A stretch of DNA of 64,000 nucleotides, from assembly GCA_008632985.1 (NCBI GenBank), contig QPGO01000007.1:1-64000 (forward strand), written 5' to 3'. The notes below the pieces were generated by a model, which was given only the letters and a program-made list of their open reading frames with translations, did not search any database and was not told the origin of the DNA. The translations under genes were made by a program, and so were the position numbers. Shown one piece after another: positions 1 to 56,709 of this stretch. This stretch comes from Psammoneis japonica (lineage: Eukaryota). The number at the start of each line of letters is the position of its first letter. Positions within the stretch are counted from its first letter, which is position 1.

Positions 1-717
1 ACATTTCCGAACGTTTCAGTTGTTCCCGATCCGACCCGGATTGGATGTAATGGCAGTCTTTGAAGTGCCGCGATGAATGGGCTTTTTGCCCTTGAGGCTC
101 GCATCAGCGTCTTTTTTCCCATTTTGTTTGTTTGTTTTCGAGTGTGTGATGTGTGCTAGAGCAGAGCAACAGCAGTGATGCAACTGGGTTTCCTTTGATG
201 CATGGGGATGGCTGTGATGAATGGACGAGTGCGGCGGTGTTCTTTTTGATTGGGTGACGATCTATCAAAAGATACACTCGCCCAAGATTCCTTTTTCTTC
301 AGTTTTCAACGTAGTCTCTTGTACTAAGTTAACTGTAAAAAGGAATCAGAATCAATCCGTTCGCAAAACGCCACTGACGCACGAGAATGATGAGGATTTA
401 TGTTCTTCTTCCGTTTTCTCCTCCGGCATTTGGCATCTTTGGATCTTGTGTGGCATGACCGCATCGCCATTACCCTTGTGCAAGTGCCATTATCCATTTA
501 CAATATAACATTCCCATCCTTGATACTATACTGTCTCTTCTCGTCAGGTACACCAACACATTTGCTCCGTTCCATTCGAGCAGTTTCATCGCAGAGAGGC
601 AACGCAGCCAACGAATGTGACGGACGACTTACTCATCCTTGCGCAAAATATTCGAGTGAAACGAAAAAGATACTGGCGCTGCAGGAGTGCTTGGAAACAA
701 GTCTCGTTTTCAAAATC

Positions 718-3700
718 ATGGGACAGTCTTCGTCAAGTTCCAGCAGCAGCATTGACATGTCAGCGGATTGGTTCGTCGCTTTGCCAGAATTTCAGCAAGA
801 GCGCATTCGTCGCTTCCAAGAGAATGATCCAACATTCACGGTGCTTTATCTCAACGACAATTCCATTGGAGACGAGGGTGCCGTTGCCATTGGAAAAGCA
901 CTAGAAATGAATAAAACATTGACGGGGCTTGTTCTCTGGGGCAATTTCATTGGAGACAAGGGTGCCGTTGCCATTGGAAAAGCACTAGAAACGAATAAAA
1001 CATTGAATGTGCTTGTTCTTGGTAGCAATTCCATTGGTCATGAGGGTGCTGCGGCCATTGGAAAAGCACTAGAAACGAATAAAACTTTGACGAAGCTTGT
1101 TCTTGGCTTCAATTCCATTGGAGACAATGGTGTCTCGGCCATTGGAAAAGCACTAGAAATTAATTCAACATTGGCGTCGAATCTCCAAAGCCTGGACATT
1201 AGCTACAATGTCATTACAAGACTTCCACGCTCCATTGTCAAACTTGAGGGAACGTGCAAATATTTTAGTGTGGGCGGTAATCCACTGTTGGAACCCCCGT
1301 CCGAGGTTGCCAAACAGGGCCTCGAGGCGATTGCTCGTTACTTTGAAGCCGTGGACAAAGGGGAGGCAATCACATCCAGACAGCTCAAGACGGTGCTGGT
1401 GGGGGATGGGGAAGCAGGAAAGACGAGCCTGCGCAATGCCATTGCGGGCCGTTTCCCGGCGCGCACCGAGGGTGAGGAGGAACGGACCATTTATCTCAAT
1501 GTGGAACCTGTGCAGATAGACGCACCCGAAGGATACAGCAATGATCCAATTACGTTAATGGTCTATGACTGCGGCGGTCAGCAAGACTATGCTGTCGGGC
1601 AGGCACCATTCATGACAGCGTCGTCGCTCTTTTTACTTGTCGTGGCGGCGGACAAGGCACACGACGATTTCTATGAAGAAGTAGTGCATCGCTTTCTTGT
1701 GCTACTACAGGCAAGGGCACCGGGTGCCGTGGTGCAACTTGTCCTATCTAAGGTTGATATTGTGCCGGACGAGTGGGAACGAAAGCAATGGCTCAAGAAT
1801 AAAGTCCAAGGGCAGCTTCAAGCATGGCGTAATGCCGCCGCCAATCGAGAAGGAGAGGAAATTGCTCCTCATGATCATGTCATACCAGAGGACTCGACGG
1901 AAAGAAAGAAGCCGCCGCTGCTCCGGATCCTACCCACAGTCCTGGAAGTATCCGTAACGAGTGAAAGTGCCATTGCATGCGCGAGGGAAGAGGTGAGCAA
2001 TACCATCTTTAGGCACACGCAGTATTATTCGGAGCCGAGGTTATCAAGTGTCGGTACGCTAATCCCAAAGTCATGGCAGGAGCTGTGGAAATTCTTTGGC
2101 GCTGTTCTTCAGTGCGGTGCAGATGCCGATAAAGAAGAGCTTTTCTCTGCAGCAAGTTCCGATGATGCTATCCCGTTGGGCGAGATTGGGAACATGAAGA
2201 CGACTACAGACGGCGAGATTGAGATACCAGCCAAAGGACCTTATTGTTCAGTTGAGAGGCTCAAGTCATTATGGAATACATTCCGTTTCTTGCACGCCCC
2301 CTTGGCTGAGGACACTACGTTCAATGATGCACTAGGACTTCTTGAAGCCCAGGGCAGTATTTTTGTTGATGCTGGGTTGGCGTATTTGGAACCGTCTTTT
2401 GTAACCGACTTGATCAAACCTCTCATAGACCACACGTTGACGCTGGAAAAAATAAAATCACCGGCTTTCCAAAAAAGTATTGGAATATTTGTAAAAGGAG
2501 TTATGAGACCGCCAGCTGGACTGCGGAATCTCATAGTTGGGGGACTCAAGAAGCTGACAGAAAAGGGAGAGTTGGATCCCGTGATTCTTCCCTTCTTGTG
2601 GCATGACCTAGTAAATGATCACCAGGATTTCCCAATGATCCTCCAGATGCTTCTGGATTCGGACGTAATTTTTGGATCTTCGCTTGATGACAGTTTGCGT
2701 GGTCTCAAGCCCGTGGTTCTCTTTCGACAACGAAAAGAAGTACAAGCGGAAGAGTTGCAAAAGGCGTGGCCAAATTTGTCTGATGACCAACAGCAACAAG
2801 AGCTGCGCCTGAAGATGTGGGAAGGATGCCCCCCAAGTCTCGCTGCACATTTTGCCGCCGCGACCCATGCACATGGGAAATGTATCTGTGCATGGCTTTA
2901 TGGCGCGATTGTCCTCGACGAGAACACCAACCGTCGCGTGCGGTTGGAGCTTGTTGAGATGGAAGGAGAAGTATGGTTAGTGTTCACAGCTCGTGGTGCT
3001 CGAGTTGATAAGGACATGTGGAGTTTGTTACAAGGTGCGGTCGAATTCGTTATCGCGGAAAGAAACGATCATTTTCCAGGTTTGGATTTCGACTGTGTAC
3101 TCGCCTGTGCACGCTGCATTGAGCTCGGTAGAGCCGTCGATGAGTGCCACGAATTCGACTGGTCTGAAGTAGCTGCGCCGAGGACAATTGATTCTCTTGT
3201 GTGTGATGTATGCAAAGAAGTTGTTAAAGTCGGAAGGGTGTTCCATACTGGAGATGGAACTTTCCATGACAGCAAGAAAGCTCGGAAGAATGAGTTGCTC
3301 GACAAAATGATGGAGCGCCTCAATCACCTTTATATGGCAAAAGATATACCTGATGATGCCAAGCCGAATGAAGCCAAACATGAATCTAATTCCAGTTTAC
3401 AATCTCCTCTCGACGGAACGGTCTACACAGCTCGTACGGTTGCCCCCCAGATTACAGCCGGTGGATGCAACGTCTCTAGCTTGTATTCGCGAGCGCGATT
3501 GGATGGTAATGAGACACATGTGGGAGAGTTGTCAATGAAAGGTATTTCGGATCCTAGCAGTGTTTGGCAGGTCAACCTTGGTGGCGATCCGTATGTGTTT
3601 TTGTCGCATAGAGGTATCGATACCAAAGAGACTATTGCGCGTCCTACGCATTGGTTCCTATCAGAAATATTGGGTCTAACCGCTTTCTTTGATGATGATA

Positions 3701-4200
3701 GCATGGAAACTGGTAGTGACAAGATGCGTTCTCTAATGGAACCTGCGCACAGTTCTTCGCATGCTTTGGTTTTGCTGTCACCTGGGTTTCGAGAGAGTGA
3801 TTACTGTGTCATGGAGCTTAATACCTTCATGATGCGTCGGAGCAAGAGAAACTTAATTTTGCTCCCATATCTTTGGAAACTACAAAAAGTCGATAATGAG
3901 TTCGCATCAGCTGTAAAGGAGATCAATTGGTGCAAGTCTCGGACGGAGGACCCGGCATATTATTTGGTTGAGATCCTGTGGCCTGACCTAATTGAGAGCC
4001 TGAAAGCTGGACGACAAGACCGATCAGATTGGGATGCGCTGTCATTGAAAGACAAGCTTGTTCAGTACGTCGAAGAGCACCGGGGGAAGCAAGGCATTCC
4101 AGATATCCCGTCGAGTCTGGAACGCTTTGCTCGAGTTCACAAAAGGTGGGGAGTATTCAGTGCTCAGGGGTGCCTTACCTGTTTTCGGCATTGCAGCTGA
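718..4200 (+). CDS. ROCO-family protein: RNI-type LRRs + ROC GTPase + COR + Cys-rich segment + C-terminal TIR domain
   Basis: About four 28-aa LRRs (LxLxxNsIGDeGAvAIGKALExNKTL). ROC motifs G1 GDGEAGKT, G3 YDCGGQ, G4 SKVD. COR-like region (IPKSW...YLEPSFVTDLIKPLI). CxxC...CxxC. TIR starting YVFLSHRG...AFFD...LLSPGFRESDYCVMEL. The ORF opens at 400, but ATG 718 (MGQSSSS, possible myristoylation site) is the likelier start. Confidence 0.9.
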   Translation: MGQSSSSSSSSIDMSADWFVALPEFQQERIRRFQENDPTFTVLYLNDNSIGDEGAVAIGKALEMNKTLTGLVLWGNFIGDKGAVAIGKALETNKTLNVLVLGSNSIGHEGAAAIGKALETNKTLTKLVLGFNSIGDNGVSAIGKALEINSTLASNLQSLDISYNVITRLPRSIVKLEGTCKYFSVGGNPLLEPPSEVAKQGLEAIARYFEAVDKGEAITSRQLKTVLVGDGEAGKTSLRNAIAGRFPARTEGEEERTIYLNVEPVQIDAPEGYSNDPITLMVYDCGGQQDYAVGQAPFMTASSLFLLVVAADKAHDDFYEEVVHRFLVLLQARAPGAVVQLVLSKVDIVPDEWERKQWLKNKVQGQLQAWRNAAANREGEEIAPHDHVIPEDSTERKKPPLLRILPTVLEVSVTSESAIACAREEVSNTIFRHTQYYSEPRLSSVGTLIPKSWQELWKFFGAVLQCGADADKEELFSAASSDDAIPLGEIGNMKTTTDGEIEIPAKGPYCSVERLKSLWNTFRFLHAPLAEDTTFNDALGLLEAQGSIFVDAGLAYLEPSFVTDLIKPLIDHTLTLEKIKSPAFQKSIGIFVKGVMRPPAGLRNLIVGGLKKLTEKGELDPVILPFLWHDLVNDHQDFPMILQMLLDSDVIFGSSLDDSLRGLKPVVLFRQRKEVQAEELQKAWPNLSDDQQQQELRLKMWEGCPPSLAAHFAAATHAHGKCICAWLYGAIVLDENTNRRVRLELVEMEGEVWLVFTARGARVDKDMWSLLQGAVEFVIAERNDHFPGLDFDCVLACARCIELGRAVDECHEFDWSEVAAPRTIDSLVCDVCKEVVKVGRVFHTGDGTFHDSKKARKNELLDKMMERLNHLYMAKDIPDDAKPNEAKHESNSSLQSPLDGTVYTARTVAPQITAGGCNVSSLYSRARLDGNETHVGELSMKGISDPSSVWQVNLGGDPYVFLSHRGIDTKETIARPTHWFLSEILGLTAFFDDDSMETGSDKMRSLMEPAHSSSHALVLLSPGFRESDYCVMELNTFMMRRSKRNLILLPYLWKLQKVDNEFASAVKEINWCKSRTEDPAYYLVEILWPDLIESLKAGRQDRSDWDALSLKDKLVQYVEEHRGKQGIPDIPSSLERFARVHKRWGVFSAQGCLTCFRHCS

Positions 4201-10590: not shown

Positions 10591-11572
10591 ATGTTATTTG
10601 CCTTCATCATGCTTTCCGTCCTCCCACCCTCCACCTCCTTTACTTTCTTATTTCATGCAACTTTTCCCTCACTGAATGGCGGCTTTACTCCCAGCCGGAG
10701 TCCTTTTCAACGTTGTCTTTGCATATCTTACACTTCCAGTAGCAAGAGCGAAGTGGAACCGTCCAGCATGAAGCTACGAGAAATACAAGCGGAATTAAAA
10801 GAAAAGAACGTTCGATTTGACGATTGTTTTGATCGAGAGAGTCTGACAAAGAGGCTGCTGGAAGCTCGAGATGGGACAATACCACCACCACAACAAGAAG
10901 AAGAAACAAATGTTTCTGAAAAGCAAGAGGTAGACGACACTGCCGTACCACCGCCCCCCGCTTCCGATTTTGACCGCGACGCAACCCTGGCGGAACTGAG
11001 ATCACTTCGAGTCAAGGAATTGCGGACAGAGTGTGCAAGACGAAATATTCGGTGGGCGCAAATGATTGAAAAAGAAGAGTTGGTACAAGCATTGCTGGCG
11101 GCGCGAGAAAAGGCTGGAAACTTCTCGGCCAGTGGAGCGCTTTCACCAGGAAAGGTATCTGACATTAACGACGACCAACTATCTGCTGAATTAGAAGCGG
11201 GTGGGTCCAATACTCCTCTGTTACTTGATGTGTATGCCGTAAGTAGAGGTACCGAATGAGTTTCCTAAGCAAGTTCGTTCTGATTTCGCCATTCTCAACT
11301 TTTTTCAACGGTCTTTTCTAATATCCTAGACATGGTGCGGGCCCTGTCAAATGATGTCCCCGCAATTGGAAGCAGCAGCAGCGGAATTAGGTGACTTGGC
11401 AAGAGTCGCCAAGATTGATTCGGACAAGTACCCGACGTGGGCGAGTCAGTTGCGAGTAGGTGGACTTCCGACAGTCATTGTATTTGACGGTATATCTGGA
11501 AAGGAAGTGGAACGAGTTGAAGGAGCGCTTATGAAGGATGGACTGGTTGAGTTGGTTAGAAAGCACTTGTAG
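10591..11572 (+). CDS. Thioredoxin-domain protein with N-terminal SAP/HeH-like helical repeats; probably plastid-targeted
   Basis: Intron 11239-11329 (GTAAGT...TAG) joins LLLDVYA to TWCGPC. The N-terminus resembles a bipartite signal peptide (MLFAFIMLSVLPPSTSF). Confidence 0.85.
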
Positions 11573-11764
11573 TATGATTGGTGGATCCTTCGTTAATGAT
11601 GAATTTTGATAAAGACAGCATGCCTTCTTCCTATCTTTTTTGGCACATTTCTCGAGTGCATCAGTTTAGATGAGTTGTTCCGGAGGAGAGTGACGCAACC
11701 GCGCCACTTCCAACTTGGATGGTATAGGTTGCGACTACCCAAGTGAGGAAGAGGACGAAGTTGA

Positions 11765-13025
11765 CTCAGAATACTGTACACTACCTAACGAGTGCGGGAG
11801 GTTCTCAACAACCCAAGAGGCAAAGAAATTACCACTCGGCTAATTGTTGAGTCCCTTCTCCGCACACACATTTAGGCATGTGTTGTGCACAGCATCATCA
11901 CACAGCATTTGTCCAACTCTCCCTCTCGTCGCAGGATGGGGTGTCGCCTTGGGGTGCATCCGCACGGCGGACTTACGAATTTGACCATGCACTCCCTCTG
12001 ACGGGCAGGATGGGTAGCGCCATGTGGCGCATCCGGCCAAGGGAGGAGTGGGTTCGAAGCCCAACCGCCCACCCCGGATGGGGTTGGAAAGGGGCAGGCC
12101 GAGAAAGAAAAGGAGGCTTGGATTTGAGGCCGACTCGAACCAGCGACCTCAGGAAGCGTAAAGACTCACAACCACTCAGAATGCTGTACACTGCCTGACG
12201 AGCACGGGAGGTTCTCAACAACCCAAGAGGCAAAGAAATCACCACTCGGCCAATTGTTGAGTCCCTTCTCCGCACACACATTTGGGCATGTGTTGTGCAC
12301 AGCATCATCACACAGCATTCATCCAACTCTCCCTCTCATCGCAGGATGGGGTGTCGCCTTGGGGCGCATCCGCACGGCGGACTTACGAATTTGACCATGC
12401 ACTCCCTCTGATGGGCAGGATGGGCAGCGCCATGTGGCGCATCCGGCCAAGGGAGGAGTGGGTTCGAAGCCCAACCGCCCACCCCGGATGGGGTTGGAAA
12501 GGGGCAGGCCGAGAAAGAAAAGGAGGCTTGGATTTGAGGCCGACTCGAACCAGCGACCTCAGGAAGCGTAAAGACTCACAACCACTCAGAGTGCTGTGCA
12601 CTGCCCAACGAGTGCGGGAGGTTTTCAACAACCCAAGAGGCAAAGAAATTGCCACTCGGCTAATTGTTGAGTCCCTTCTCCGCACACACATTTGGGCATG
12701 TGTTGTGCACAGCATCATCACACAGCATCATTTGTCCAACTCTCCCTCTCTTCGCAGGATGGGGTGTCACCTTGGGGCGCATCCGCACGGCAGACTTGCG
12801 AATTTGACCATGCACTCCCTCTGATGGGCAGGATGGGTGGTGCCATGTGGCGCATCCGGCCAAGGGAGGAGTGGGTTCGAAGCCCAACCGCCCACCCCGG
12901 ATGGGGTTGGAAAGGGGCAGGCCGAGAAAGAAAAGGAGGCTTGGATTTGAGGCCGACTCGAACCAGCGACCTCAGGAAGCGTAAAGACTCATAACCACTC
13001 AGAACACTGTACACTGCCTAACGAG
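11765..13025. repeat. Tandem array of a ~410-bp unit (3 full copies plus the start of a 4th), running into an assembly gap
   Basis: The ctcaga...ctgt.cact.cc..acgag unit start recurs at ~11765, 12175, 12585 and 12998. Confidence 0.95.
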
Positions 13026-13523
13026 NNNNNNNNNNNNNNNNNNNNNNNNNNNNNNNNNNNNNNNNNNNNNNNNNNNNNNNNNNNNNNNNNNNNNNNNNNN
13101 NNNNNNNNNNNNNNNNNNNNNNNNNNNNNNNNNNNNNNNNNNNNNNNNNNNNNNNNNNNNNNNNNNNNNNNNNNNNNNNNNNNNNNNNNNNNNNNNNNNN
13201 NNNNNNNNNNNNNNNNNNNNNNNNNNNNNNNNNNNNNNNNNNNNNNNNNNNNNNNNNNNNNNNNNNNNNNNNNNNNNNNNNNNNNNNNNNNNNNNNNNNN
13301 NNNNNNNNNNNNNNNNNNNNNNNNNNNNNNNNNNNNNNNNNNNNNNNNNNNNNNNNNNNNNNNNNNNNNNNNNNNNNNNNNNNNNNNNNNNNNNNNNNNN
13401 NNNNNNNNNNNNNNNNNNNNNNNNNNNNNNNNNNNNNNNNNNNNNNNNNNNNNNNNNNNNNNNNNNNNNNNNNNNNNNNNNNNNNNNNNNNNNNNNNNNN
13501 NNNNNNNNNNNNNNNNNNNNNNN
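13026..13523. other. Assembly gap (N run)
   Basis: Run of n characters. Confidence 1.
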
Positions 13524-13760
13524 TGAGTGCAGTACGGAAGTTTGGTGCATATTTCCGAATAAATATATCCAGGTACGAAGGTTCTGTTTTGCCATCTGCT
13601 TAGTCAGTTTGGCCCCAGCTCAACGGGCACACGTCCCGAATTCCGAGCGTGATGGATTTGTTCGCTCAGTTGAGTACCAGAGTCAACGTAGAATTCTACT
13701 CAGCGCCAAAAACAACGATTTTTCAAAACACACACAACAACAGGAACAAGGATTGCGACA

Positions 13761-14566
13761 ATGACGAACCTCCCACCTCAAATCGAAACGGCCATCAAGA
13801 AGACCGATGAGTTCATGGCCAAGTACCCGACTCTTACACAGTATGGTATGTTTCTTTGATCGGCGCACTTGGAAAGAGACGCAGAAACTACGGTTGACTG
13901 CGGGCTTCTCCTGGGAATGTACCGCTACGTAGATCAAGTACCAAGTTCTACGCATCACCGGCTTGAGTATCTTTGCAATCGTGCCGGAAGCGATACTGTC
14001 TGAATCTTGTTGATCAAAGAGTGCAGAGGTTGCCGTCGCGTTCTTTGGTCGTATTGAATAGTGGATTGTGATGTGTAGAGTGTTCGTTTTCAATTTCCTG
14101 AATCAAATACTACGTGATGTCTCACCGTTATTCTTGCTGCGTGATGTGTACAGAGAAGCTGAAAGAAGTCGAGGAGAAGACTGGTCATTCCAAGGTCTTT
14201 TTCTTTATTGGCGGATCCGTTATTATCACATTCGTTCTCTACATTACGGGAGGCGCAAAGCTCATTTCGGACCTGGTTTCTTTTGTCTATCCCGCTTACA
14301 TGTCCTTCAAGGCGATTGATACGGCCGCAAACTCGGAGCAGTGCACACAGTGGCTCACTTATTGGGTAGTCTTTTCGTTTATCTCACTCATTGAGCAATG
14401 CGCCTGGTTTATTACCGCATTCATCCCCTTTTACTTTTTCGTCAAGCTGGCTTTCTTCATTTGGCTCTACCATCCCAAATTCATGGGGGCGGCTGTCATT
14501 TACAGCCAGGCCATCAAGCCACTTGTGACGCCGTACTTGAAAGTCACACAAAAGAAGGCTGCGTAA
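13761..14566 (+). CDS. TB2/DP1/HVA22 (YOP1/REEP) family ER-shaping protein, two exons
   Basis: Exon 13761-13845 and intron 13846-14153 (GT..CAG); FVYPAYMSFKAID, QWLTYWVVFS, PFYFFVKLAFFIWLYHP, GAAVIY. Confidence 0.9.
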
Positions 14567-18921: not shown

Positions 18922-19445
18922 GTTTGCACGAGGAAGGACGGAGTTGTATGTATATGTTATTTGAAAGTTTTCGGATGAATTGATCAGTTCATACTGTACA
19001 CCTTTACTTGCTCCATGAACTTTTAAATAACGTGGATGTGAGAAAAGGGATGTGCCGGAGGCGTGCTGTCTCGGTTGTCCGCTACCGTAACTTCGGAAGC
19101 GACGTGCGGACGCAACCACTTTTCTGTTAACCTTAAAAACAGTACAGTATTTCATAAAGTAGTATTTTCTTTTGATGTCAATCCTCTTTTCCAGGTACTG
19201 CTCATTAATTGTACTGTAGGCTACACTAATCTACGGCGTGCTGTGTACTTGAAAGGATTCATTTTGGTGCAACGTTGTGTCTGAAATATGAAAGGGTTCG
19301 CCACAACAGGCGTTTCATTCACCAATATTCCAAAATACAAATAGATGTAGCCATTCTTGTCTATAAAACACGAGAATGAACCATAGTTACAGCTTACTAT
19401 GCTCTCTAGTAAAGAGCGTACTCATTTGGCAACTCGCGTCACGCA

Positions 19446-19946
19446 TCATAACGACTTGACGTCTTCGCCAACATGATCGTTGTTGCCCATAATATACAGA
19501 GGAGTAGCGATCAACGTCACGAATGGTACATTGAACGCAGCATGTTCCACTTCATCCGTCAGTAAACTAAAGCCCGTATCCAAGACAAACCATACTGCTG
19601 TGGAGGTTGCCAGTGCTCGACGCGCCAGGGCTCGAATCGAACCGTCGTTGCTTGCGGCAAGGCGAACCACAAACCACATTAAAGCCATCCAACCCACAAT
19701 GATGGACCCCAGTACTCCAAACGCAAATATAGCATAATCGACTCCGTCTGGGTCGAGATTGTGCGTGTTGGGGCCGAAACGAAGTGCATCAAACAGCGTC
19801 ATGGCAAAGACGCGGCCCGATAGCACCATTCCAAGCCCATAGACCGTAACAACCGCGATTACGGCGCGGAGAAAGGCGTGTGCTCTTAGATACTGGCGTG
19901 ATGGTGAAGATTGTTTGGGTGGCATTGTATATCCTATACCTAGCAT
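19446..19946 (-). CDS. Small multi-pass membrane protein of unknown function
   Basis: Intact 166-aa ORF with about four hydrophobic helices; a mutated paralog lies at 33490-34030. Confidence 0.75.
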   Translation of the reverse strand: MLGIGYTMPPKQSSPSRQYLRAHAFLRAVIAVVTVYGLGMVLSGRVFAMTLFDALRFGPNTHNLDPDGVDYAIFAFGVLGSIIVGWMALMWFVVRLAASNDGSIRALARRALATSTAVWFVLDTGFSLLTDEVEHAAFNVPFVTLIATPLYIMGNNDHVGEDVKSL

Positions 19947-20620
19947 GTGAGATGCCTACTGCATGGAATAGGGAGGGTTCATCGTCATCGTGCCTGCTCG
20001 GTTATTGCTCCTCTATGTTGTGTTGGTCCTCGCGTTGGAACTTCTTCGAATTCGAACGGTTGGATGGACGGACGGCTCTATGATTACCGTTCAATGAATT
20101 TTCCTCAGCTCTGTAGTTCAAAAAAGAAACTTGCACTTGTCGCTTGTCGCAGTCTGAGCGAGATCTGAGATCTTGCCTTTGTTGACCTTGCACCGCTGCT
20201 GGTAAAGCACTTTGCAAGCTACAGTATCGCAACCGGAACAACTATTCCATACGCCATCGCTGCATGATGCATGAGAGACCACAAACTGGCACGGTAGAGA
20301 GCATAGGGTATCTAGGGTATCCAATCTAAGGGGCGTGAGCATCGGTTGCCAATTACCAAAGTTATGGCTTAGGTTTGTTGACTACAGGAGGCTACACCAC
20401 CTTTGTCGGTGGAAGTGTCGGTGTGTTTGTAAATGTTCGATATTCTAACATTTAGAAGTTAGAAAAAGAGCCAGAGACAAAATCGCGAACGGCAATGCAT
20501 CTCTTCGTGCCTGAAGCCTGCCTCAAATTAACTCCAACACCGCAGCTCATGATGACAGCCGTCGTTACGAATAACCAGCTGAATTGCTCTTCGTAAATCG
20601 CAGTTCATGATGCCAAATCT

Positions 20621-23180: not shown

Positions 23181-24017
23181 GATGCTTTCGCTTTGGTGAG
23201 ATGTAAGATAGAAGTTGTGTGCTTACTGCTTACGTTTGATTTGCAGCCCGCGAAAACTCCCGGAATTCATTTTGAGCACTGGATCGTAAACCGCAACGAA
23301 CGAATAAGATGATCGTCCTTTGAGAAGTTCAATTCAAATGCTTTCTAAGTTACATTTAATGGGCATAGAGAGTCAACCTCTGTTTCCCTAAATGAAATGT
23401 GGCGGGAAAACGACTGCGTGCCACCCGGCCCGGCAAGATTTCTGCTCGAAAATGCTTGCTGTTTACAGTGCAGCTAGCACCGTGCAACCCTCTCTCTAAA
23501 GTATGTAAAAGACAACACACATCTTTTCACGCCTTTCGATCGAGTTCTTCCATCTGTTTCGCAGTTTTTCTTCCCGTTTTTGGCGCGGAACTTGGGACAG
23601 GTTACACAGGTTCAATGACGGACAAGCGAAGCAACGCGCAAGGGAAGGATCGTCTGTCCACCATTGTGCCCAACGAATGGACTGCTTTGTGCATTTTGCC
23701 GGCACATGGAGCCTTGCATGACTGGCACAATGGCTCTTCATCTCACTTCTAATTGTTGGACTGTTGCCAGCAGACATTTGTCAAACATGGGCTGACACGT
23801 CTGCTGTAAAATGGTGGTGCTGCCTCCAGCAGCCAGCTGAGGGCTTTGTGCACTGCAGGTGATGAAAAACAGCAGATTGCCAAAAGCCGTGTTGTGGAAA
23901 TCATGAGACTGGTTCATTGTCTTGAAAAGTGGAGTCATGTGAGTGCACAACCACACAAATTTCCTGTTGGTTCACACTTTGGATCTTGCTGCACACAGCC
24001 AGTGCACACCTGCTGTC

Positions 24018-24108
24018 TGTGTGTGTCATGATGCCGGCAATGATGGCTTTTCAATGCACACACACTATGTGAGAATGCTTGCTGCTCAGATCTCTGTGTT
24101 GCTGAGCC
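24018..24108. repeat. Dispersed ~90-bp repeat; second copy at ~32915-32998
   Basis: gtgtgtcatgatgc.ggca.tgatggc...tgcacacac...cttgct.ctcagatctc...gctgagcc in both places. Confidence 0.75.
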
Positions 24109-24199
24109 TTGGAGTCCCCCTGTGCTCCAACAGCGTGTGCCACCACTGCTGTGAGCAGTGCGCACCTTGTGCCCTGGATGGTGCACGCCACGTGCTCCC

Positions 24200-27100
24200 C
24201 CATGACTCAACAAGCAGCGACATGTCCTTGCAGGAGACAGGGCACAATGTGCTGCAGATTGCACATGCCCATCAGTGCACCATTTTGTGTGAAGAGCACT
24301 GCTGTCATGTGCGTGGACAACTTTGGCTTGACTCGCTCACACAACAGCCAGCTCAACATTTTGTCTTTTTTTCTTGTTTCACCAGCGCCAGCTGCCCAGC
24401 AGTGCGCAAGTTTTGTGATCTCATGTCTGTTGTTCAAGTGCACCAGCATCTGCTTTCTGTGCACTTGGCAAGATGGGCAGCAGACAGAATCACATCACAT
24501 CTGAAGGCAGACCAATTGTGCGGGACTTGCGTGTGCAGTCATGTGTGCCACAGCTCTTGTGGCAAAGGCTGCAGCTGATGAAGCACTGTTCAATGGGCAA
24601 CTCTCATCCCAGCTCCACATCCTGTGCTGAAAATGAGTGCACCATGTTGACAAGCACCTGGAGAGTGTGCAGTCCACAACTGCAGATTTCTTTCTTCACT
24701 TGTGGGGTTCCAAGCAATGCCATGGTCATGTTTGATCATTTGACTGAGTTCAGCACCACAAACTCAGCTTTGCAGTCATGGGCCAGCACTTTGACGACCA
24801 CAAATGCCTGCATGGCCATGTTTTTGTTCCATGATGTTTGCCGCAACATCCGCTCCTCATTTGGCAGGTGCTTCCTTGATCTCAAACCAGCCCGGTGGCT
24901 GGGTTGACCATGGTCACTGCCCACAATTGCAAAGTGTCCTTTCCAAGCCCATGTTGTTTATTTTGGCAGGGGCCAATCATGTCAAGACATGGAGCTCCTC
25001 ATGGGATCAACTCAGCCATTTTTCTGGCAGTTTCCCACAATGCTGTGTGTTTGGCATTTTGTCTTCTGGCATTGTTCACACTTGACATGTGCACAGCATG
25101 TCACAGGAGCTCTCATGCTGGGCCAATGGAAGCACTGGGCAATGGAAATTTCTGTGCATGTTTTGTCAGGGTGGCACAGCTGCTTGTGATGCCACTCTGT
25201 TGGAGGCTTTCCCAACACCTCTGGTGAAACAATTTTGTCCTGACAGCACATCAGCTGTCATGATGCACCCCCACCCCCACCCCACAAAAGAACATGTGGG
25301 CAGAGTGCACACTGGATCACTGTGCATTTTGTGACAGGTGCTTGTCCTTCTGCCCTTCTTGTTGCATTTTCTTGAAGCTTGCTGGTGGAGCTGATCCATC
25401 CAAAGTGAATGCTTCATGCAAGGGATGTGTGTCTGGCATCTCTGCTGCTCTGAGGGATTGCACTCAGACTCCAAACTTGGCCCCTTGATGTGTTGCAACT
25501 CAGGGCCACATTCTTCACACAGCAACCACCAAATGCATGATGACTTTGGCAGTGAACACTTTGCACACATGAGATTGTTTTTTGTGACCAGCACATGCAT
25601 TTGTGCATTGGCCAAAGAGCATCACTTGAAATTCTGTCAAGATCTCCACAACAGCCAGCAAGCAATTCTCTCTCTATTGTTGTGCAGCTCAGCTGCACAC
25701 TGTGAAGCTTTCCACCACAAAAGGCAATGTTGGGTCCACTGTCCTGTGACATTGCTGCTCCAAGTTGACATGAGGAGGCATCAACATGGACCTCAAATGG
25801 CTTGTTGAAACCCGGACGCACCAATGAGACATCATCTGACAACACTTTCTCAATGGTCCCAAACACCTCATCTTCTCAACAATGGATGTTCACTTTCATT
25901 TAGAAGCCCCACTTGTGAATCATGCAAGTGGCGCCAGAATTTCAGAGCATTTTTTCCAAGTGTCATGACAGCAGCTCACTGCACCAACAAAACAATGCAG
26001 CTGTTGTTTGGTGGCAGACTTCTTTGCAATGCACTCACCTTGACTTTAGAAGGTGTCAGGTGTGCTTTGCTCTGATTGGCCAAACAGCTCAACAGTGCTC
26101 CAGCTGGGTCTGGCAAAAAAGCAATTTTCTTGCATCAACTTCAAGCCTGGCATTGCTCATGCACACTGGTGAAGCATGACCACCAGCTTTCCAGGTGGTC
26201 TTCATGAGCACCCTCAGCAATTGCAAGAAGATCATCTGAGTGAACATGCATGAATGACAAATCTTTGAATGGCTCTGACATCTTTTCCTGGAAAACATCC
26301 AGCAAATCACATGAGCCCACTGGAAGGACCTGCATTTTGCACTTTCCCCACCATGGGAAGACACACACATGTGCTGCTTTTGGCTGTCACTGTCAAGTTG
26401 AATGTGACAATTTGTTCTGCACTCAAATCCAACAATTTTGTCACACATGATGAAGCCCTTGAGCTGAAGTGGCATGTCCTGGACACAGGGAGCTGGACAA
26501 GGCACTCTTTTGGTTCTTTTGTCTCAAGCTCTCAGAACTTCTTGACACACTGCACCATTGAATCTTTTTTTGGTGTGGCAAACAATGGAGTGGCCCACTA
26601 CAAACGGTTGGCACATTGACAATTGGCACATTTGAGAGTGCCAATCTCACACAAGTGCGCCATCTCTTCATGCAGTGCAGATGGCTTCATGTGCCCTTGG
26701 GACTTTGTGCAGATGATTGTGTCCATGATGTGGCTTCTTGACACCCTCTCTTCAGCTGGGCATGGAGGGGATCCCCTTTCCATCCACCCAAGGGCTCAAG
26801 TTGGCTCAATGGCCTGAGAAGCTGTGCTTTCTAGCCACAATTTGGCCATCATGTTGCCCTCGCATCATCATGTCCTCAAGGCATGCCAGTGCAGCACACT
26901 GGGCACCCAGAATTTTCCAAGTTCTGTCACTTTCCAACAATGGAGGTTTTGGATCTTGAAGACAGAAGGAGGTTTCTGCTGCAGCTTCCACATCTCTCAT
27001 TGGCATCTTGCCAATGACCTGCAGCGTCAATGCCCTGAGGCTCCAATGTGTCTTGCCCAACAAGCATGCTGCATTTGCCTGACAATCCACTGTGCATGTG

Positions 27101-28500
27101 GCTGGACTTCATGTGTGATTTCTGCAGTTGTGGATGATTCTTGCAAAAGTGGAACTCAGCGGCACAATCATGTGCCATTTTGAAGCTGCTGACTGCTGCA
27201 CTCTCCAGTTCATGGTTTGGCCATCACATGACTCTGAAGCTGACTGCAGCACCTCACATCTGGCAGTGTTTTGCTGGCACTGCTGTCCAGCAGTGCCTTG
27301 GTTGCTTCGCCAGTCTTGCCTTTGCCATGCTTGGCACTTGCAGCCACAAACAAGAATGGTGTCAAATGAGCATGCTTGGTGCAAATTCATTGGATGGCTG
27401 GCCTGCAACGCAAGTGCAGTGACAGGACACATTGGTGCATTGAACCCATCTAACTCATGTCAGCCTGCTTCTCAGTCAGGTGCATTCATGATCCAAGTCA
27501 GCATCTGAGTTGCTTGGGAAGAGGTTGCGGAAACAACTAAATTCCTCCTTGCAAGCCTTGTGTTTGGCTTTGGGGCTTGAGCATGCTGCCTTCATCCTTG
27601 GCTTCAACAACCACATTTTGTGCTCATCCTTGTTGCATGCCTTCTGCACAGATGGGTCACTGCTGCTGTCTGATTGGGGTGTTTTGAGACACTTTACTTG
27701 ATGTTTCAAACTGCTGCATGTTTGAGGGCTTTCTCTGGACTCACAATCAATGGTCATCAAGGACTTTCTGTTCCATGGCACCACTTCCCAGGAACATTGG
27801 TGCTGCCTTCCTGCTCACCTTTGGAATGTTCAACACTTGCTCTGCATGCTCACAGAAAAAAAGATGAGTTAGACAATGCCACATGCCAAGGGGCTGCAAG
27901 ACTCCTTAGTGACCATTTCTTTCTGCCACATGTTGAGCACCCTTCAAGTGAGTCAACCAGCTCATCATCTGGCAATGACACAGGCACTGTGCACCATCGT
28001 CCTCCATCACAGGTGGAAACAGTGAACACAGCTGATGAGCTCAAAAGCCCCCATGATGCAACCATGAGTCTTCATGTCAAGCAGCTTGCAAGCACAATGT
28101 TGTTGATGATGCTTCTGCCACAGTGCCACCCAGCAAGGGAAGATGCTTTTGCCAACTTTTGTGAAACATGCCTTGAGCAACACATTGGTTTCCATGTTGT
28201 GTTTCTCAGCTTTGCTGTCAAATGCAGCCAAGGCATCACCTTTGAGCAACTGGCACACAAGCAAAATCTTCTCCGGACCTGCAGCGCTGTGTGGGAATGA
28301 TGGGTGCTCTTCACACACATGCCTGCGCAACATGTTTCTGCACTTGACAAGAAGAACAATGAACAACAACTGCAATTTTCAGGTTTGTGACAGCAGTTTC
28401 CATCAATGCACAATTTTTGCAAACATCAACTGTTCATTGTGTTCTGTCATTTGATTTGTGAACAATTTCACTGTGATTGCCTGTTTGAAGTTGCGCACCA
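24200..28500 (-). mobile_element. Heavily mutated Ty3/Gypsy LTR retrotransposon relic (gag-RT-RNaseH-integrase)
   Basis: RT remnants PWWGKCKMQVLPVG..DVFQEKM..VHSDDLL (from YxDD); RNaseH PFEVHVDASSCQLGAAMSQ..KLHSVQLSCTTIERELL; integrase-like LCHP and HDCKAEF. The order fits Gypsy; borders are approximate. Confidence 0.85.
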
Positions 28501-29409
28501 GCATTTTCTTTGCCGTGGCTGATGTTCACAGATGAAGGTTGCAACAGCATCAAATGTGCAGTGTCTCATTTCACAAATTTTGGTCTTGTTAATTTGGCTA
28601 GAATGCCTTCCATTTGGTCACCCACTGCCTGCATTGCAAGGTGTTTCTGCTGCATTTGTCTCTCTTTGTTTCATTGGACACTGCACAATGCATCTGCCAA
28701 CCCATTGTTTTGGCAACAATGGCACGCCCCTGCCACAATCTGCCAGGTGCTGATTGCTTGTCTGATGACAACAATGAACATGTTCTCCTTTGACATTTTC
28801 AAAAACATCCTCAGTGCTTTTCTTTCTTCCAGCTCATCCTCAACAATGTGCCTCTTTGTTTGCCTGAATGGATTTCAATGGATTTTTTCATGTGGCAGGA
28901 TGGGTGCAAAATTTTGTTACAAAATCAACCAACACAGTGACGTTGGTGGACAACAAGAGCACAACAGCAATGCTGTCTTCAAAATTGTGACAGAGGATGA
29001 GCAACAACAAAATGCTGCTCCTTGTTGCTTGGCAAGAAACTTTGGAAATGGCTTGAGCTGTGCCAGGTGGGGGTGAAAATGACACAGCAAGCTTCTGCAC
29101 CCTTGGTTGCATCAAGGCAAGTTGTGTTCTTGTCTCCTGCATCGTTGCCTCATGCGTTGCTCCCTGCATTTCATGCAGTGCCTCGGCACCATGGGCCGGC
29201 GCATCATTTTCTGTCTTGGTGCTGCTTTGCTCTTGCATCAGAGTTCATTGGCAGTGCCACTGATGGTGCAGCAGTGGCGCACATTGCCAGTTTGTGCTTG
29301 GACTCAGGCACTGGTGCTGTTGCTTTGGGAATGGCAAGGATGCACACTGACACCAAGTTGGCCTTTTTCATTTGGAAAGAATGTCCGGAAACAGCCAGTT
29401 GGGCACTGG

Positions 29410-30150
29410 GCACAAGGTGACAAGGATGGGCCACAACACTTCAAGACCAGCAACCTCACAATGCCCAACTGGCAGAGCTCTCAAAGTGTTGCCTGGGGTG
29501 CACCAAAGACCACCAATGCCCTCTGCCAGCAGTTGTCAGGTTGGTTGGTGCCCCACATGGGATCTTTGCACTCCAGAGTTGGGGAAGTCAAGCCTGCTGT
29601 GCCGTTGGCGGCACAAGGTGACATGGGGCCACAACACTTCAAGATCAGCAACCTCACAATGCCCAACCAGCACACAGCTCTCAAAGTGTCATCTGGGGTC
29701 CACCAAAGACCAGCACCAATGCCCTCTGCCAGCAGTTGTCAGGTTGGCTGGTGTCATCATGGAATCTTTGCACCCTGATGGAGTTGGGAAAGTCAAGTCT
29801 TCTGCTGCTGCTGGGGACAAGGTGTCCCAGGGCCACAACAACATCAACCTTGCAATGACAAACAACAGTTCTTGAAGTGTCACCTGGGGTCCACCAGACA
29901 CCACCACCAATGCCTTCAGCTTGCAGCTGTCAGCTTGGTTGGTGCCATCATTGGGTCTTTTTAGCGTGGAGTTTGGAAGCTCAAGTGTGCTGCTGTTGGG
30001 GAGAGAAGAGGTGAGACATGGGGCCACAATGCCACAAGATCAACAACATTGCAGCTGCCAACAACTGCTCTTTAAATGTTGCCTGTGGTCTGCTGCATGT
30101 TGCCAGCATCCTCAGCCCAGCTTGCAGCTGTTGGGTTGGTTGGCGCCACT
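29410..30150. repeat. Degenerate tandem array, ~200-bp unit, about 4 copies
   Basis: aaggtg...ggccacaacac...caacctcacaatg...ctggggt.cacca...gttgtcaggttgg recurs at ~29412, 29614, 29818 and 30010. Confidence 0.8.
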
Positions 30151-31254
30151 GTGCAACACAAACAAACTGCTCAGACCAGCACAAACAATGTGAAAATTTG
30201 TTCTTGACAACAAGAGCCAGTTGAGATCATGCATGAAAACTGAGGCACAAAACTTCTTAAAAAAAACAGATGCACTGCATGTGATTGAAGCACACAGTGT
30301 TGAGCACACACTGCTGCCAAACAACAAATGACAGCTCACAGCAAAAATGCCCCCCCAGCAATGAAGGAAACTTCAAAAATGAGTGTGACAAAAGGCTCTG
30401 AAAATGACAACTTGCAAAATGACATGGACAATGATTGCCCGGCCAGGTGGCTCATGGCTTGGCATCATGCCAAAATGCACGTCATTGCCACCACACAAAA
30501 CAGCATGAAAATCAGGGTGCTTGGGCCCCATCCTGTGTGCAGCAACAATTTGCAGGAAGGCACCAATGAAGCCAAGGACTGTGCACACTCAAACAAAGAA
30601 AAGCAATGAGAAAAGCAAGAGGCAAGAAGCATGGCACAAAAGCAGGCAGCTCTCAGGACAGTGCAAAAACTTCTTGTGCTTTTGCCTGTCCTTGATGCTC
30701 AGCAGACAAATTTGCACAAGTTTCGCCAGCAGGACATGCTGCACTGCAATGTTGCACCAAGGTGAGTGGAAGTGGCATCATTGTTGTTCAACTGAACATG
30801 CAAAACTCATGACTTCTTTGCTTTCTTCTGGCAGGCATTGCTGCAGCACTCCTTGCATGCTGAGTGACACACAGAGAAGCCAATGCTTGTTGAAAGACAA
30901 ATGACAGAACCGTGACACTGACTGGAACACAGATGCCAGCTTGAGCACAACACCATGCCAGCACAGCAAAGAACAAGAAGATGCCACACAGGAGACAGCA
31001 AAAGGAAATGGGAAGGGGAGTGAGCAGCAGTGAGCAAGAACACGGTGCAGCACAAAGCCAACATTGCCAGAAACCAACATTGCAAAATGTGCAAATCAAA
31101 TTGTCAGCAGCATGCATCCAATGAAAAGAGAGTTGCAATGAGATCAACTTGCATGGTTGTTCTCAGAAATGAGTCAGCACGTCAGCAGTTTGTCGCACAT
31201 GCACTGTTGCCAAGATCAAAAACTGACAAGCCACACACCATGTGTCACTCCTTG

Positions 31255-31700
31255 TGCAATATACAGCTACTAATAAGAGTTAATGTATCACGGCGACGTG
31301 TTACAGCCTTTAAATGTCACAAAGGGCGTGACAAAAATAACCTTTTGTCTGCATGCATACTGCATTATGAATTCATAGCGGAGTGGTACATCGTAACCAC
31401 TAGGCAGGAGGCCAGGGGTTCGAAACCCGAGTGGGAGTTGTCTGCAGCAACGTTGATCATTGTCGAACGCGTAAAACTCTGTGCAGTTCTGTATGTTCCT
31501 TCGTACGTACCCACACTGTTCCGCCAAAACCGTGCAGTGTCAGTACACGTTAGTAAAGAGCCGTATGGACGCGTGATACATGGGGAGGAGTGCAATATAC
31601 AGCTACTAATAAGAGTTAATGTATCACGGCGACGTGTTACAGCCTTTAAATGTCACAAAGGGCGTGACAAAAATAACCTTTTGTCTGCATGCATGCTGCA
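31255..31700 (+). mobile_element. Intact young TRIM (miniature LTR retrotransposon), 446 bp
   Basis: 110-bp LTRs at 31255-31364 and 31591-31700 (TGCA...TGCA) differing at one base; polypurine tract GGGGAGGAG right before the 3' LTR; 4-bp target-site duplication CTTG (31251-31254 and 31701-31704). Confidence 0.92.
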
Positions 31701-33489
31701 CTTGTTGTTTCCCGCTTTGCCAATTGGCTCAAATGTTGACACAACAACATTTGCAATGGCTGCATTGCAAACATGTGTGTGCAAAATCCATCTTGTCAAG
31801 ATCTCACACATTCTTTTGACACCAAATTTCATTGAGTCTCTTGCCCCCCACTTTGCCAATTTGCTTGATTGTCAAAAATGCTTTTGAGGATGGATCATCA
31901 ACTTGCAGGCAGTTTTGTGGGAACTTGCAACTTTTGTAAAAAGATGGACCATGTGTCATCCAAAAGCAAATTTCAGTGACAGGTTGAACTTTGTCTGTTC
32001 ACAACACATCGCAGAATGCACACCAAGATGGTTGCGACCATGTGTGATGTCCAGCTCACAGACTGCAGAAATGTCTGTCAAGTGCCAGTTGTTGTTGGTG
32101 GGGAACATTGTGGCTTGTCCAGCAGAAGTGGCACAGTTTTGGCAAACAAAACAGATCATTGAACCTGACAACTGTGCCAAATCTGACAATTGGTGTTTGA
32201 AGGTGTTGACAAGTGCAGTTCACACACAGGTCTGATGGACCTGATGGGGGGATTGGACACACTCACAGGTGTTTGGGGTGCTTGGATGCATTTGCAAAAT
32301 GATGCTGGCAAAGTTTGGGAAGATGGCAAAATTGCAGTCCATTTAAAAACAATGCTGCCAACCAACAATCCATCCTTGACCACACCAGTCAAAGAGGTCA
32401 GAGCTTGTTGAGAGCGCAGGTTTCTTATCAAAAGCAAAGAATGTGGCTCCAAACGAGAGCCACAACATTGTCCAGATGCACCCACAGAAAAGCACGGAAC
32501 ACTCAGTTCACACATTGCACTGTCAGCATCTGCTGGTGTGCTGGCAAGTTCCTGAGTTCACACATCTGACATTCTCTCTTCAACAGCACCTTCTTCTCTG
32601 GACATTTTGGCTGAATGAGCAGCTCAGCCGCCCACTTCTTTGTGGTTGGTTTGATTTGTCATTGGCTTGACCAACATCACGGCCATCACACACTTGCGGG
32701 AGTGACGTTTTTGTGCCTTGTGCATCACCAGGCAATGAAAAGAGGCAGATCATCAAAAGTCATGTTGTAGAAATGGAGGGACCCATTTGTTGTCCAGAAA
32801 ACAGGAGGAATCAGGTGAATTCCCTGTTGGTTTGCATTTTGCATCATGTGCAGCTGGGCATGCATGAGTTTCTCTGACCCCATTTGCAAGTCATCATGCA
32901 CACACATGTGCATTGTGTGTGTCATGATGCTGGCATTGATGGCCTGTCAAAGTGCACACACCAAGCACTTGCTCCTCAGATCTCCAAGTCGCTGAGCCAC
33001 AGACCCCTCCCGCACTTCCATGGTGGTGCAGGCTGCTTGAGCAACAGGAGGCTGCCACTGCTGTGGTGCACGTGCCTTGCCCCCTGGGACATGCACAGTC
33101 TGGCCATGTTGCCAGTGCAGCACATGCTGCATCAAGCTGCAGGTGTGGCCAAGCTCAGCCAGCTGCTGGGTGGCCAGTGCCGCTGATGCCAGGCCAAGCC
33201 AGGGCTCTCAACTTGCGCGCTGGTTTGCCAAAGGCAATCCAGGCACCTGGGGTTTGTGGGGCCCCAAGTGAAAGCTGCTGGCCAAAAGCACATGCTCTCT
33301 CAGATGTTGGCACAGTGGCAAAGATTGTTTGGGTGGCATTTCCTGCACCATGCACACTTCGTTCATCAGCAAAACAATCTAAAATGCAGACAGATGCAAG
33401 GCAAATGCTGGATGATGCCTGTCTTGTCTGTCAAACCATGGGAACAAACCACAGTTTAGAGCATGCTCACTGGGCAACTTGCATCATTC

Positions 33490-34030
33490 ATTGTGGTTGT
33501 GACTTGGCGTCTTCACCAGCATGATTGTTGATGCCCATGACATGCAGAGGAGCAGCGATCAACATGTCTTGACATGGAATGGTGTGGTGTTGAGTGCAGC
33601 TTGTTCCATGATTTCACCCATCAGCAAACTGAAGCCCACATCCAAGGCAAACCACACTGCTGTGGAGGTTGCCAGTGATTGATGCACAAGGGCTTGTGAA
33701 CAACTCTGCTTGATGCAAGATGCACCATGAACCACGTTGAAGTCATCCAGCCGACGACAATGTTGGGCCACCCCAGCACACTCTCCAAACGCAAGTGTGC
33801 GGCACAATCGACTCCATCTGGGTGAAGATTGTGGGTGTTGGGGCCAAAACAAAGTGCATCAAACAGTGTCATGGCAAAGATGCAGCCCGACAGCACACCA
33901 CTCCAAGACTGTGGACCGCAACAACTGTGATTGAGGCACGGAGAAAGGCGGGTGGTGCTCTGAGGTGCTGGTGGCGCGTGATGGTGAAGATTGTTTGGGT
34001 GGCATTGCACATCCTGAACCTGGCATGTGA
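33490..34030 (-). pseudogene. Hypermutated pseudogene copy of the 19446-19946 membrane-protein gene
   Basis: Collinear with 19446-19946 (flanking homology spans ~33355-34400 vs ~19310-20300); TA dinucleotides replaced; frameshifts present. Confidence 0.92.
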
Positions 34031-34443
34031 GGTGCCTGCTGCATGGATTATGGTTCAAGGTTCATCGTCATCGTGCTTCTCGGTCGCTCCTCGGTTGTGT
34101 TGGTCATCGCGTTGGAACTGTTGGGGAACTTCTTTGAATTTCCAAATTCGGACGGACGCATGGGCGGACTGTATGTTCAATGAATTTTCTTCAGCTTTGC
34201 AGTTCAAAAATGAAACTTGCACTCGTCGGTGTCTGAGATGCCCATGGCGGTGTCGAACGTTATCTTCTATGATACATCTCTTGCCTTTGTCGACCTTGGA
34301 CCGCTGGCAAAGCAATTTGCAAGTTACAGTATCACAACGGGAACAACTAATAATCAAAACGTCATCACTGCATGACGCACCAACTGGCACAGTAGAGAGC
34401 ATTTCACAAACAGCAGACAGCAAATCTTTATGCGACAAGAAAA

Positions 34444-56103: not shown

Positions 56104-56709
56104 CATAACATTAACGATGATTGAAAACTCCACGTCACTAACTCGAGCGCTAATTATTCCAATGCCCTGCTGGAACTAACAAAGACACACACTTGAACAC
56201 CAGATGGTTACTTTGATTTTCACGTGGCTATGACCTCGACATTCATTGGCACAAATTGTGATCACTTCAACCCATTCCCTGCCCCTCTTGGCAAGAGCCC
56301 CCATTCTTTCACTTGGAGGGGCCAGACTTGACTGGATCTGATTTAATTGGAGTTCCATGGATGAAAAGCAGCATGGTGTGAGTGTTCATGAGTTTTGAGC
56401 CACCTGAAGCCACAACGCACACACCACAGCGATCGCACCAATGCAACTTGCTTGGCAGCATTGTCATCATGGTCACCAGATTCCTGGGCATCCAAATGGG
56501 AGAAAAATTGGTGCACTGGATGCTTGATCAAGGAGCATCTCCGTCAATTGTCCCACCTGGACAGGGCCTTGGCACAGAGGTGCTTTGTGGCTGACAATCA
56601 AGCTGTTGCTTCTCTGTGATGTCACATGTGGTCAAAATCCAACTGGCACAATCCGAGTCTGATGTCAAACCCTCAGGTGCACCTGTCTTGTCCTTTTGCT
56701 CCCATGCAC

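Follow-up and report, generated by a model that had tools for sequence, protein, structure and literature searches.

Introduction

In ascomycetes, RIP disables mobile DNA through dinucleotide-specific transitions that are confined to repeats, affect both strands and have sharp limits. Its chemistry is C-to-T, which creates TpA, and the process is triggered by repeat homology before meiosis and depends on RID. DNMT4/RID has been linked to diatoms (PMC9998398). In the rhizarian alga Bigelowiella natans, Mettrop et al. (bioRxiv 10.64898/2026.01.13.699255) describe an A-to-G signature, found at TpA only, that arises de novo in mutation-accumulation lines. The process raises the de novo rate approximately 1000-fold in the subset of lines in which it is active, its targets are integrated NCLDV and virophage DNA, and an ADAT-type deaminase, as yet unproven, was proposed as the agent.

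The element class that concerns us here is also known. Tandemly arrayed TRIMs, in which LTRs alternate with internal regions and inverted forms occur, were described in plants as non-coding elements of <1 kb with terminal direct repeats and a target duplication of 4–6 bp (Gao et al., 2016, PMC4717578). Helenus TRIMs carry a tRNA-like sequence within the LTR (Kojima, 2024, PMC10886601), and Copia and Ty5 use a half-tRNA as primer, starting from the anticodon loop (PMC10886601, section 3.6).

Here we describe a tandem array in the diatom Psammoneis japonica in which TpA steps (TA) have been converted to TG or CA. The window, by which we mean the entire stretch of DNA analyzed, comprises 64,000 nucleotides (positions 1 to 64,000 of contig QPGO01000007.1, assembly GCA_008632985.1), and all unqualified coordinates refer to it. 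We hold it to be nearly certain that a repeat-confined process changes the A of TpA to G and acts after insertion. It is a variant of a phenomenon that has been described once before, in another alga and with a proposed mechanism; a literature search for a TpA process in diatoms returned no report.

Results

The repeat unit is a tandemly arrayed TRIM

TRF identified a tandem repeat at 11764–13025 with a period of 410, 3.1 copies and 95% matches, which a 498-N assembly gap (13026–13523) terminates on the right. A sequence-only reading of this DNA had described a 410-bp tandem array and missed the nature of its unit. With 125 matches, spread over many contigs of the 91.4-Mb genome, the unit is no local satellite; it combines the LTR and the internal region of a TRIM that is dispersed in the genome. 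The copy on contig C97 is made up of a 155-bp LTR, a 255-bp internal region and a second 155-bp LTR (565 bp), with a 5-bp target duplication; its LTRs differ at 1 of 155 positions, and it contains 13 TA per unit. Read along the minus strand, the internal region has a purine tract ahead of the LTR and, at its opposite end, two 9-base blocks in common with the 5′ half of the Met(CAT) tRNA gene carried by C15. Target-site duplications of 5 bp were found at 7 of 14 independent loci, while the window locus itself cannot be called because of the gap. A Copia-type reverse-transcriptase region on C405 (RVT_2, E 3.5e-35) is bordered by this LTR together with its purine tract, and the element there is a candidate autonomous Copia partner sharing the LTR.

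Based on the LTR/internal layout, the primer site, the purine tract, the target duplications and the Copia-bordering LTR, the window array is a tandem TRIM and a new member of a known element class. It has terminal direct repeats, a short non-coding internal region, an element length of <1 kb and at least three LTRs with internal regions between them, and inverted units occur in the arrays on C6 (L133), C93 (L134) and C405 (L013); all of these features are shared with the plant arrays. LTRs usually end in TG...CA. Unlike the plant elements, the diatom LTRs lack these ends and the units bear TA scars. The family also differs from Helenus TRIMs (TRIMp3), as its tRNA-like sequence lies in the internal region, where neither ARAGORN nor Rfam calls it, and these programs called no tRNA-derived sequence inside the LTR either. 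The possibility that the unit is itself a tRNA gene or a known RNA was rejected, as ARAGORN gave 0 calls and Rfam a single chance match (E 0.87). Directly after the primer site, at 12132–12151 and in each internal region, the minus strand resembles a tRNA 3′ half and is T-arm-like; judging from sequence, this piece might pair with the half-tRNA primer or serve as a Pol III box.

The arrays on C6 and C93, each enclosed by one 5-bp target duplication, combine internal regions of different lineages, which suggests that cDNAs were joined, or templates switched, before integration. As our homologue searches scored 40 candidates each (of 92, 194, 204 and 91), all family counts are incomplete samples.

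The array lies between two ordinary genes, probably on one homologue only

To the left of the array is a thioredoxin-domain gene (10768–11572, plus strand; 237 aa, intron 11239–11329), from which a spliced contig reaches the insertion site. To the right of the gap is the last exon of an HVA22/DP1 gene identified by domain search (14102–14566, plus strand). Both genes have normal TA content. An LRR-Roc-TIR protein gene (394–4200, 1268 aa) occupies the contig start. An exact look-up of two proteins from the window returned no match, and an allantoicase search gave relatives in pennate diatoms with identities of up to 67%.

A contig from run X1 links 11763 to 13524 at a depth of 55.6 and represents the empty allele, and the X1 contig that enters the element has a depth of 22.2, compared to 56 in the flank. 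From these two observations we infer that one homologue lacks the insertion, which would thus be hemizygous. Run X1 possibly derives from the sample that was used for the assembly and hence does not provide independent support. The X1 junction contig (11734–11802), which spans five TA sites of copy 1, is identical to the assembly; no X1 or X2 contig spans the window array. The gap (13026–13523) contains the remainder of the array and ∼178 bases of unique flank, a length derived from X1 record 8 (positions 31–208). Since unique sequence lies inside the gap, we dropped our assignment of the bases after it as the end of the target duplication.

Run X2 behaves like RNA, to judge from a spliced GT..AG joint, and no run is registered as RNA; its contigs show neither strand nor level, and X2 thus carries no claim on expression of the array. 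One X2 contig (record 10) joins C65 sequence, a TA-rich LTR and flank from the C97 locus (L002). At the corresponding C65 locus (L135) the assembly has no LTR, so that the contig may be chimeric or may reveal another polymorphic insertion.

TA steps in the array have become TG or CA

Aligning the units recovered every copy variant quoted in the sequence-only reading. Across the three full units, variable columns number 25 of 410, and 17 of these 25 fall inside the 26 columns of steps that bear TA or TG/CA (binomial p 3e-15), an outcome that bears out the proposed enrichment at TA. Among steps that bear TA, 10 of 11 vary between the units, compared to 5 of 23 that bear CG (Fisher p 2e-4). At two sites (agTGcg/agCAcg and cattTGtcc/cattCAtcc; unit positions 30–31 and 147–148), a lost TA had been proposed from the variants alone, and the C97 copy indeed reads TA at both.

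Compared to the C97 copy, 25 of 43 TA steps in the window array are changed (16 to TG, 9 to CA), in keeping with a strand-symmetric A-to-G change. The features, all on the minus strand as oriented by the primer site and purine tract, are LTR-internal three times plus the start of a fourth LTR, with the right end lost in the gap (11764–13025). The outer (3′) LTR (11764–11918, 155 bp), supported by the alignment and the junction contig, has 2 of 9 TA steps changed. It adjoins the polypurine tract (11919–11927, present also in units 2 and 3), which opens internal region 1 (11919–12173, 255 bp; TA 1/4 and CG 1/19 changed). Inner LTR 2 (12174–12328) has 8 of 9 TA steps changed (4 TG, 4 CA) and is followed by internal region 2 (12329–12583; TA 2/4, CG 1/19). 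Inner LTR 3 (12584–12741), which contains a 3-bp duplication, also has 8 of 9 changed (7 TG, 1 CA), with a second adenine co-mutated at the −2 position (12591). Transitions changed 2 of 4 TA and 3 of 19 CG in internal region 3 (12742–12996), and 2 of 4 TA steps are changed in the first 29 bp of LTR 4 (12997–13025). The primer-binding site is split into two 9-base blocks that match the gene on C15 and is thereby complementary to the Met(CAT) tRNA in its 5′ half. Unit 3 has the site intact (12974–12996), and units 1 (12151–12173) and 2 (12561–12583) have CA in place of its TA step.

Change runs from TA to TG or CA and acts on chromosomal DNA

Three agreeing lines of evidence, the C97 sister copy, the host tRNA gene and the insertion junctions, give the direction as TA to TG or CA. 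The Met(CAT) tRNA gene has TA at the primer-site step, which makes TA the functional state; across 82 family segments this step reads TA in 9, CA in 16 and TG in 4. Insertion created a new TA at four junctions, three of which now read TG or CA (C43, C1 and C286, all in TA-poor domains outside the window array); the unhit one (C6) borders ordinary DNA. Since a junction TA can only be hit after insertion, the change acts on chromosomal DNA.

These data bear on whether the RNA of the element was edited from A to I before reverse transcription by an ADAR-like enzyme with a UA preference. The genome has two ADAR/ADAT1-type genes, and ADAR favors U before A (bioRxiv 10.64898/2026.01.13.699255). Such editing is contradicted by roughly equal hits on the two strands, by differences between the LTRs of a single insertion and by hits at target-site junctions. 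As junction hits combined with two-strand symmetry rule out RNA editing before integration, we give this explanation only the slimmest of chances.

TA loss outpaces CG decay, but not in an older locus

CG steps in the array are mostly intact, as had been noted, with 5 of 70 changed relative to C97 (Fisher p 4e-9 against TA; rate ratio 11.8). At all other sites 6 of 1033 differ, 3 of them private to the C97 reference; the 3 that remain when these are set aside, together with the empty allele in X1 contigs, support the view that the change is recent. In 82 independent TRIM segments, from which we excluded 14 contigs of one duplicated subfamily, C381 (a near-copy of C182) and C97 (the reference), TA steps were changed at 303 of 389 LTR and 44 of 123 internal sites, and CG steps at 18 of 176 and 55 of 593, respectively. 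The TA steps that resist change, at unit positions 211 and 252, lie in the GC-rich internal region; position 211 was changed in 5 of 32 copies despite its favored TAC context. The duplicated subfamily, which was copied within a larger element, has one shared, finished TA pattern on which CG steps decay separately, indicating that TA loss came first.

The earlier claim that TA changes faster than CG decays thus stands for the early phase, at ∼12-fold in the window and ∼13-fold in a second family described below. It does not extend to an older locus, represented by C182 and C381 (97.4% identity over 6.1 kb), where 54 CG steps differ compared to 11 TA steps and 4 TG/CA flips, and ∼78 TA remain in each copy. 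As TA loss has been no faster than CG decay in this pair, the speed advantage of TA is therefore limited to an early phase or to favored contexts, or the process is episodic.

Elsewhere in the window, TA o/e is mostly 0.02–0.08 and CG o/e 0.05–0.7 in two blocks (24000–34000 and 56000–64000) that hold decayed RT-RNase H and DDE_Tnp_4 remnants. One copy of a duplicated stretch (19413–20304 and 33458–34402, 73.8% identity) lies inside a TA-poor block.

The outer ends of arrays beside ordinary DNA are spared

Full units 1, 2 and 3 of the window array contain 10, 3 and 3 TA, respectively. TA o/e is 0.70 and 0.62 in the 600-bp flanks, 0.64 in the first LTR and 0.23 in the rest of the array. Thus, even a small array between ordinary genes is affected, as the sequence-only reading held, and its suggestion that the edge copy keeps the most TA applies to two further arrays. 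These arrays, on C6 and C93, also lie in ordinary DNA, contain no gaps, carry a target duplication at each end, and show the same contrast between edge and interior. In the five terminal LTRs of the three loci that lie beside ordinary DNA, 0, 2, 2, 2 and 5 of 9 TA were lost, compared to 8–9 of 9 in the ten inner LTRs (5/5 and 6/7 in truncated ones). Among LTR TA sites, 11 of the 64 within 200 bp of an end were changed, compared to 81 of the 84 farther in; the reference copy contributes 18 of the 64. For internal regions the counts were 1 of 18 within 400 bp of an end and 17 of 32 beyond. Hence, in three arrays with ordinary flanks and with units as assembled, the outer 200–400 bp and the flanks are spared. 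Terminal LTRs in TA-poor surroundings are not, as 119 of their 141 TA were changed. Length alone is insufficient, since only 2 of 9 TA were lost from one inner LTR, on C294 in TA-poor surroundings, and the L107 element, which is >2 kb long, retains a TA o/e of 0.8.

Could the TA process be real and the edge-to-interior pattern of the window be an assembly artifact, with inner units taken from older copies, or be inherited from mutated templates? The array abuts a gap, no contig spans it, and unit positions 259–408 are identical across the three copies, a stretch that short reads cannot phase. As other arrays mix internal-region lineages, array units may not all share one history, and among heavily hit LTRs 16 pairs have near-identical patterns versus 8.5 expected by chance (p 0.026). 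However, among 40 of 91 candidates no other locus is >97% identical to units 2 and 3, and all three internal regions in the window are of the same minority 255-bp type. The gapless C6 and C93 arrays show the same pattern, and junction hits cannot be inherited, although the three that we found sit in TA-poor domains elsewhere. We therefore regard an artifact or inheritance as an unlikely source of the pattern.

Hits favor TA followed by pyrimidine and extend to nearby adenines on the same strand

We examined sequence context in a second family, unrelated to the TRIM, by comparing 2205 bp of the L107 retroelement with 23 copies. Excluded were L114, L099 and L091 (overlapping or recent duplicates), copies of <85% identity and 109 masked columns. 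The family was drawn from the matches of a retroelement at 24.5–27.5 kb of the window, which has no close relative (best 65–75%). TA steps in the family became TG 1187 times, CA 1137 times and CG 8 times, with 4 transversions and 670 steps unchanged, reproducing the strand symmetry seen in the window. A-to-G change affected 38.9% of adenines after T and 0.4–1.2% after other bases. A 3′ pyrimidine was favored (TAC 54%, TAT 48%, TAG 33%, TAA 23%), and non-TA adenines distant from any TA showed the same 3′ bias at a rate of <1%. In both the TRIM and L107 families, non-CG C-to-T change was 0.2–0.8%. As the TG/CA direction of neighboring TA sites is uncorrelated in the L107 family, TA hits accumulate singly; in the same family we detected no long, strand-coordinated (processive) runs beyond 3 bases, with one of nine distance bins at z 2.1.

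When a TA was hit, an adenine on the same strand at +1 or −2 was co-mutated 7–17-fold more often than in matched pre-existing contexts, in two repeat families. For +1 in the L107 family, TA[A]Y was co-mutated in 13 of 187 cases with the site TG, compared to 3 of 714 for old TG[A]Y and 1 of 225 with the site CA. For −2, the counts were 19 of 435 for [A]TA with the site TG and 6 of 983 for old [A]TG. Site-stratified permutation gave 20 events versus 10.3 expected at +1 (0 of 20000 simulations) and 25 versus 19.2 at −2 (p 0.008). The events come from 19 and 17 sites, respectively, with four TAATA sites contributing to each offset. In the TRIM, co-mutation occurred in 7 of 57 cases at +1 (controls 0/145 and 0/109) and 7 of 47 at −2 (controls 0/50 and 0/20), part of which may be shared by descent. 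The old-TGA and old-ATG controls rule out a mere effect of the new context. The process is thus characterized by almost only transitions, on both strands, with a preference for TA-pyrimidine and same-strand co-mutation at +1 and −2; such co-mutation is expected from an enzyme that acts where a few bases are opened.

One alternative is error-prone repair synthesis of the polymerase-eta type in methylated repeats, which would place G opposite template T at WA, with neighbor hits as slips. Tandem errors are typical of Pol-eta-type polymerases, as are frequent transversions and a TA:AA ratio far below the one we find: transversions make up 4 of 2336 changed TA steps in the L107 family, and TA exceeds AA ∼34-fold as a raw fraction. 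Pol eta mutates WA motifs, with T-to-C transitions accumulating at TA (PMC9723645), AA ranks second among the A contexts by mutated fraction (1.15% in the L107 family), and TA loss and CG decay occupy the same domains. Nevertheless, strand-coordinated runs of >3 bases are absent, and the subfamily within the larger element lost all TA and kept most CG, so that CG repair patches seem too few to drive TA loss. We judge this alternative improbable.

A methyl mark could also direct mutation to TA, if TpA carried symmetric N6-methyladenine in silenced repeats and the modified base were deaminated or miscopied to G, in parallel to 5mCpG decay. TA and CG are both palindromic and are lost in the same sharply bounded domains, and a heritable chromatin mark would account for the spared edges. 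Same-strand co-mutation of non-TA adenines, though, is unexpected from a site-specific mark, and we see little likelihood in this explanation. A search for MT-A70 gave no match, and its controls were blank as well.

Discussion

The process in P. japonica resembles that of B. natans in converting TpA to TpG or CpA on both strands, in producing almost only transitions and in being restricted to foreign or silent DNA; in B. natans, TpA-poor coding sequences are enriched for transposon domains (bioRxiv 10.64898/2026.01.13.699255). Confinement to inserted DNA is evident at the diatom array, where host genes are spared (flank TA o/e 0.62–0.70 versus 0.23 inside) and the C6 and C93 profiles agree. 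The diatom case differs in affecting multi-copy retrotransposons, down to 1.3–1.9 kb and between active genes, and in bringing TA loss near completion (TA o/e 0.02–0.08 in window blocks) with CG decay alongside. For B. natans there are direct mutation-rate data, whereas the diatom process is known here from sequence comparison. The words "diatom," "CpG," "tandem" and "trinucleotide" do not occur in the main text of Mettrop et al. (bioRxiv 10.64898/2026.01.13.699255), nor did we find mention there of an edge margin or neighbor co-mutation.

With RIP, the diatom process shares repeat-confined, dinucleotide-specific transitions on two strands with sharp limits. Unlike RIP, it destroys TpA, and non-CG C-to-T change, the kind that enriches TpA, amounts to 0.2–0.8%. 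The 565-bp copy on C97 is untouched despite 125 family matches, and with so many homologues elsewhere, homology alone would not appear to be the trigger, unless this copy is too young.

How might such a pattern arise? Following insertion of a young tandem TRIM on one homologue between two genes, the interior of the chromosomal array would become the substrate of a host process that converts the A of TpA to G on either strand, at single sites. Each hit would destroy the palindromic TA target, leaving TG or CA. The chemistry may be deamination of A to hypoxanthine by a TadA/ADAT-type or related enzyme acting in a few locally opened bases, and the enzyme may be recruited to silenced, CG-methylated repeat chromatin. 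The spared margin could mean that silenced chromatin needs length to form or that neighboring active genes push back. The slower CG decay would be ordinary 5mC loss in the same domain, and the element would end up disabled, for example through loss of the primer-site match. That a DNA adenine deaminase guided by silenced chromatin acts on the repeats is, in our view, probable.

Natural ADAT2/3 can deaminate A in DNA (PMC10354150). The natural DNA-editing ADAT2 prefers GAA and deaminates C as well (PMC10354150), unlike the TA-only spectrum of the diatom. Engineered TadA editors prefer YA or YAY contexts and also edit bystander bases (bioRxiv 10.1101/2025.05.14.653640). Among deaminases of the P. 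japonica genome, our searches recovered TadA-like (C38), ADAT2-like (C26), dCMP-deaminase and further members, all of ordinary appearance, plus the two ADAR/ADAT1-type genes; the deaminase gene fragments scanned contain no chromatin-reader domain, and the searches pinned down no enzyme. One ADAT1 gene per genome is usual. The ADAR/ADAT1-type deaminase domain occurs in two genes here (L117 on C40 and L118 on C79), with no dsRNA-binding domain in the fragments scanned. C5-methylases gave 27 matches in the genome, of which one locus (C34) has a chromodomain nearby. The C5-methyltransferase genes at L126–L128 (C301 and C297) lie inside TA-erased DNA (TA o/e 0.07–0.10) and are possibly carried by mobile elements.

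Targeted natural DNA adenine deamination has so far been reported from a single alga, in work that established no enzyme. Here, a PCR-sized hemizygous locus, an unmutated sister copy and an empty allele make rate, timing and trigger directly measurable; the spared margin informs how the target is recognized; and +1/−2 co-mutation together with the TA-pyrimidine preference provides a fingerprint for assaying candidate enzymes. In such genomes, LTR-pair dating and repeat annotation are strongly biased. We tentatively propose, at somewhat less than even confidence, that diatoms possess a natural DNA adenine base editor that serves as a genome defense. A deaminase recruited to silenced repeat chromatin would rewrite TA in a young, hemizygous insertion of <2 kb, spare a 200–400-bp margin beside active genes, leave same-strand bystander edits at +1 and −2 and destroy primer sites. 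If this is true, the process, shared with a rhizarian alga, would be the A-to-G counterpart to RIP and would either be old or have evolved more than once.
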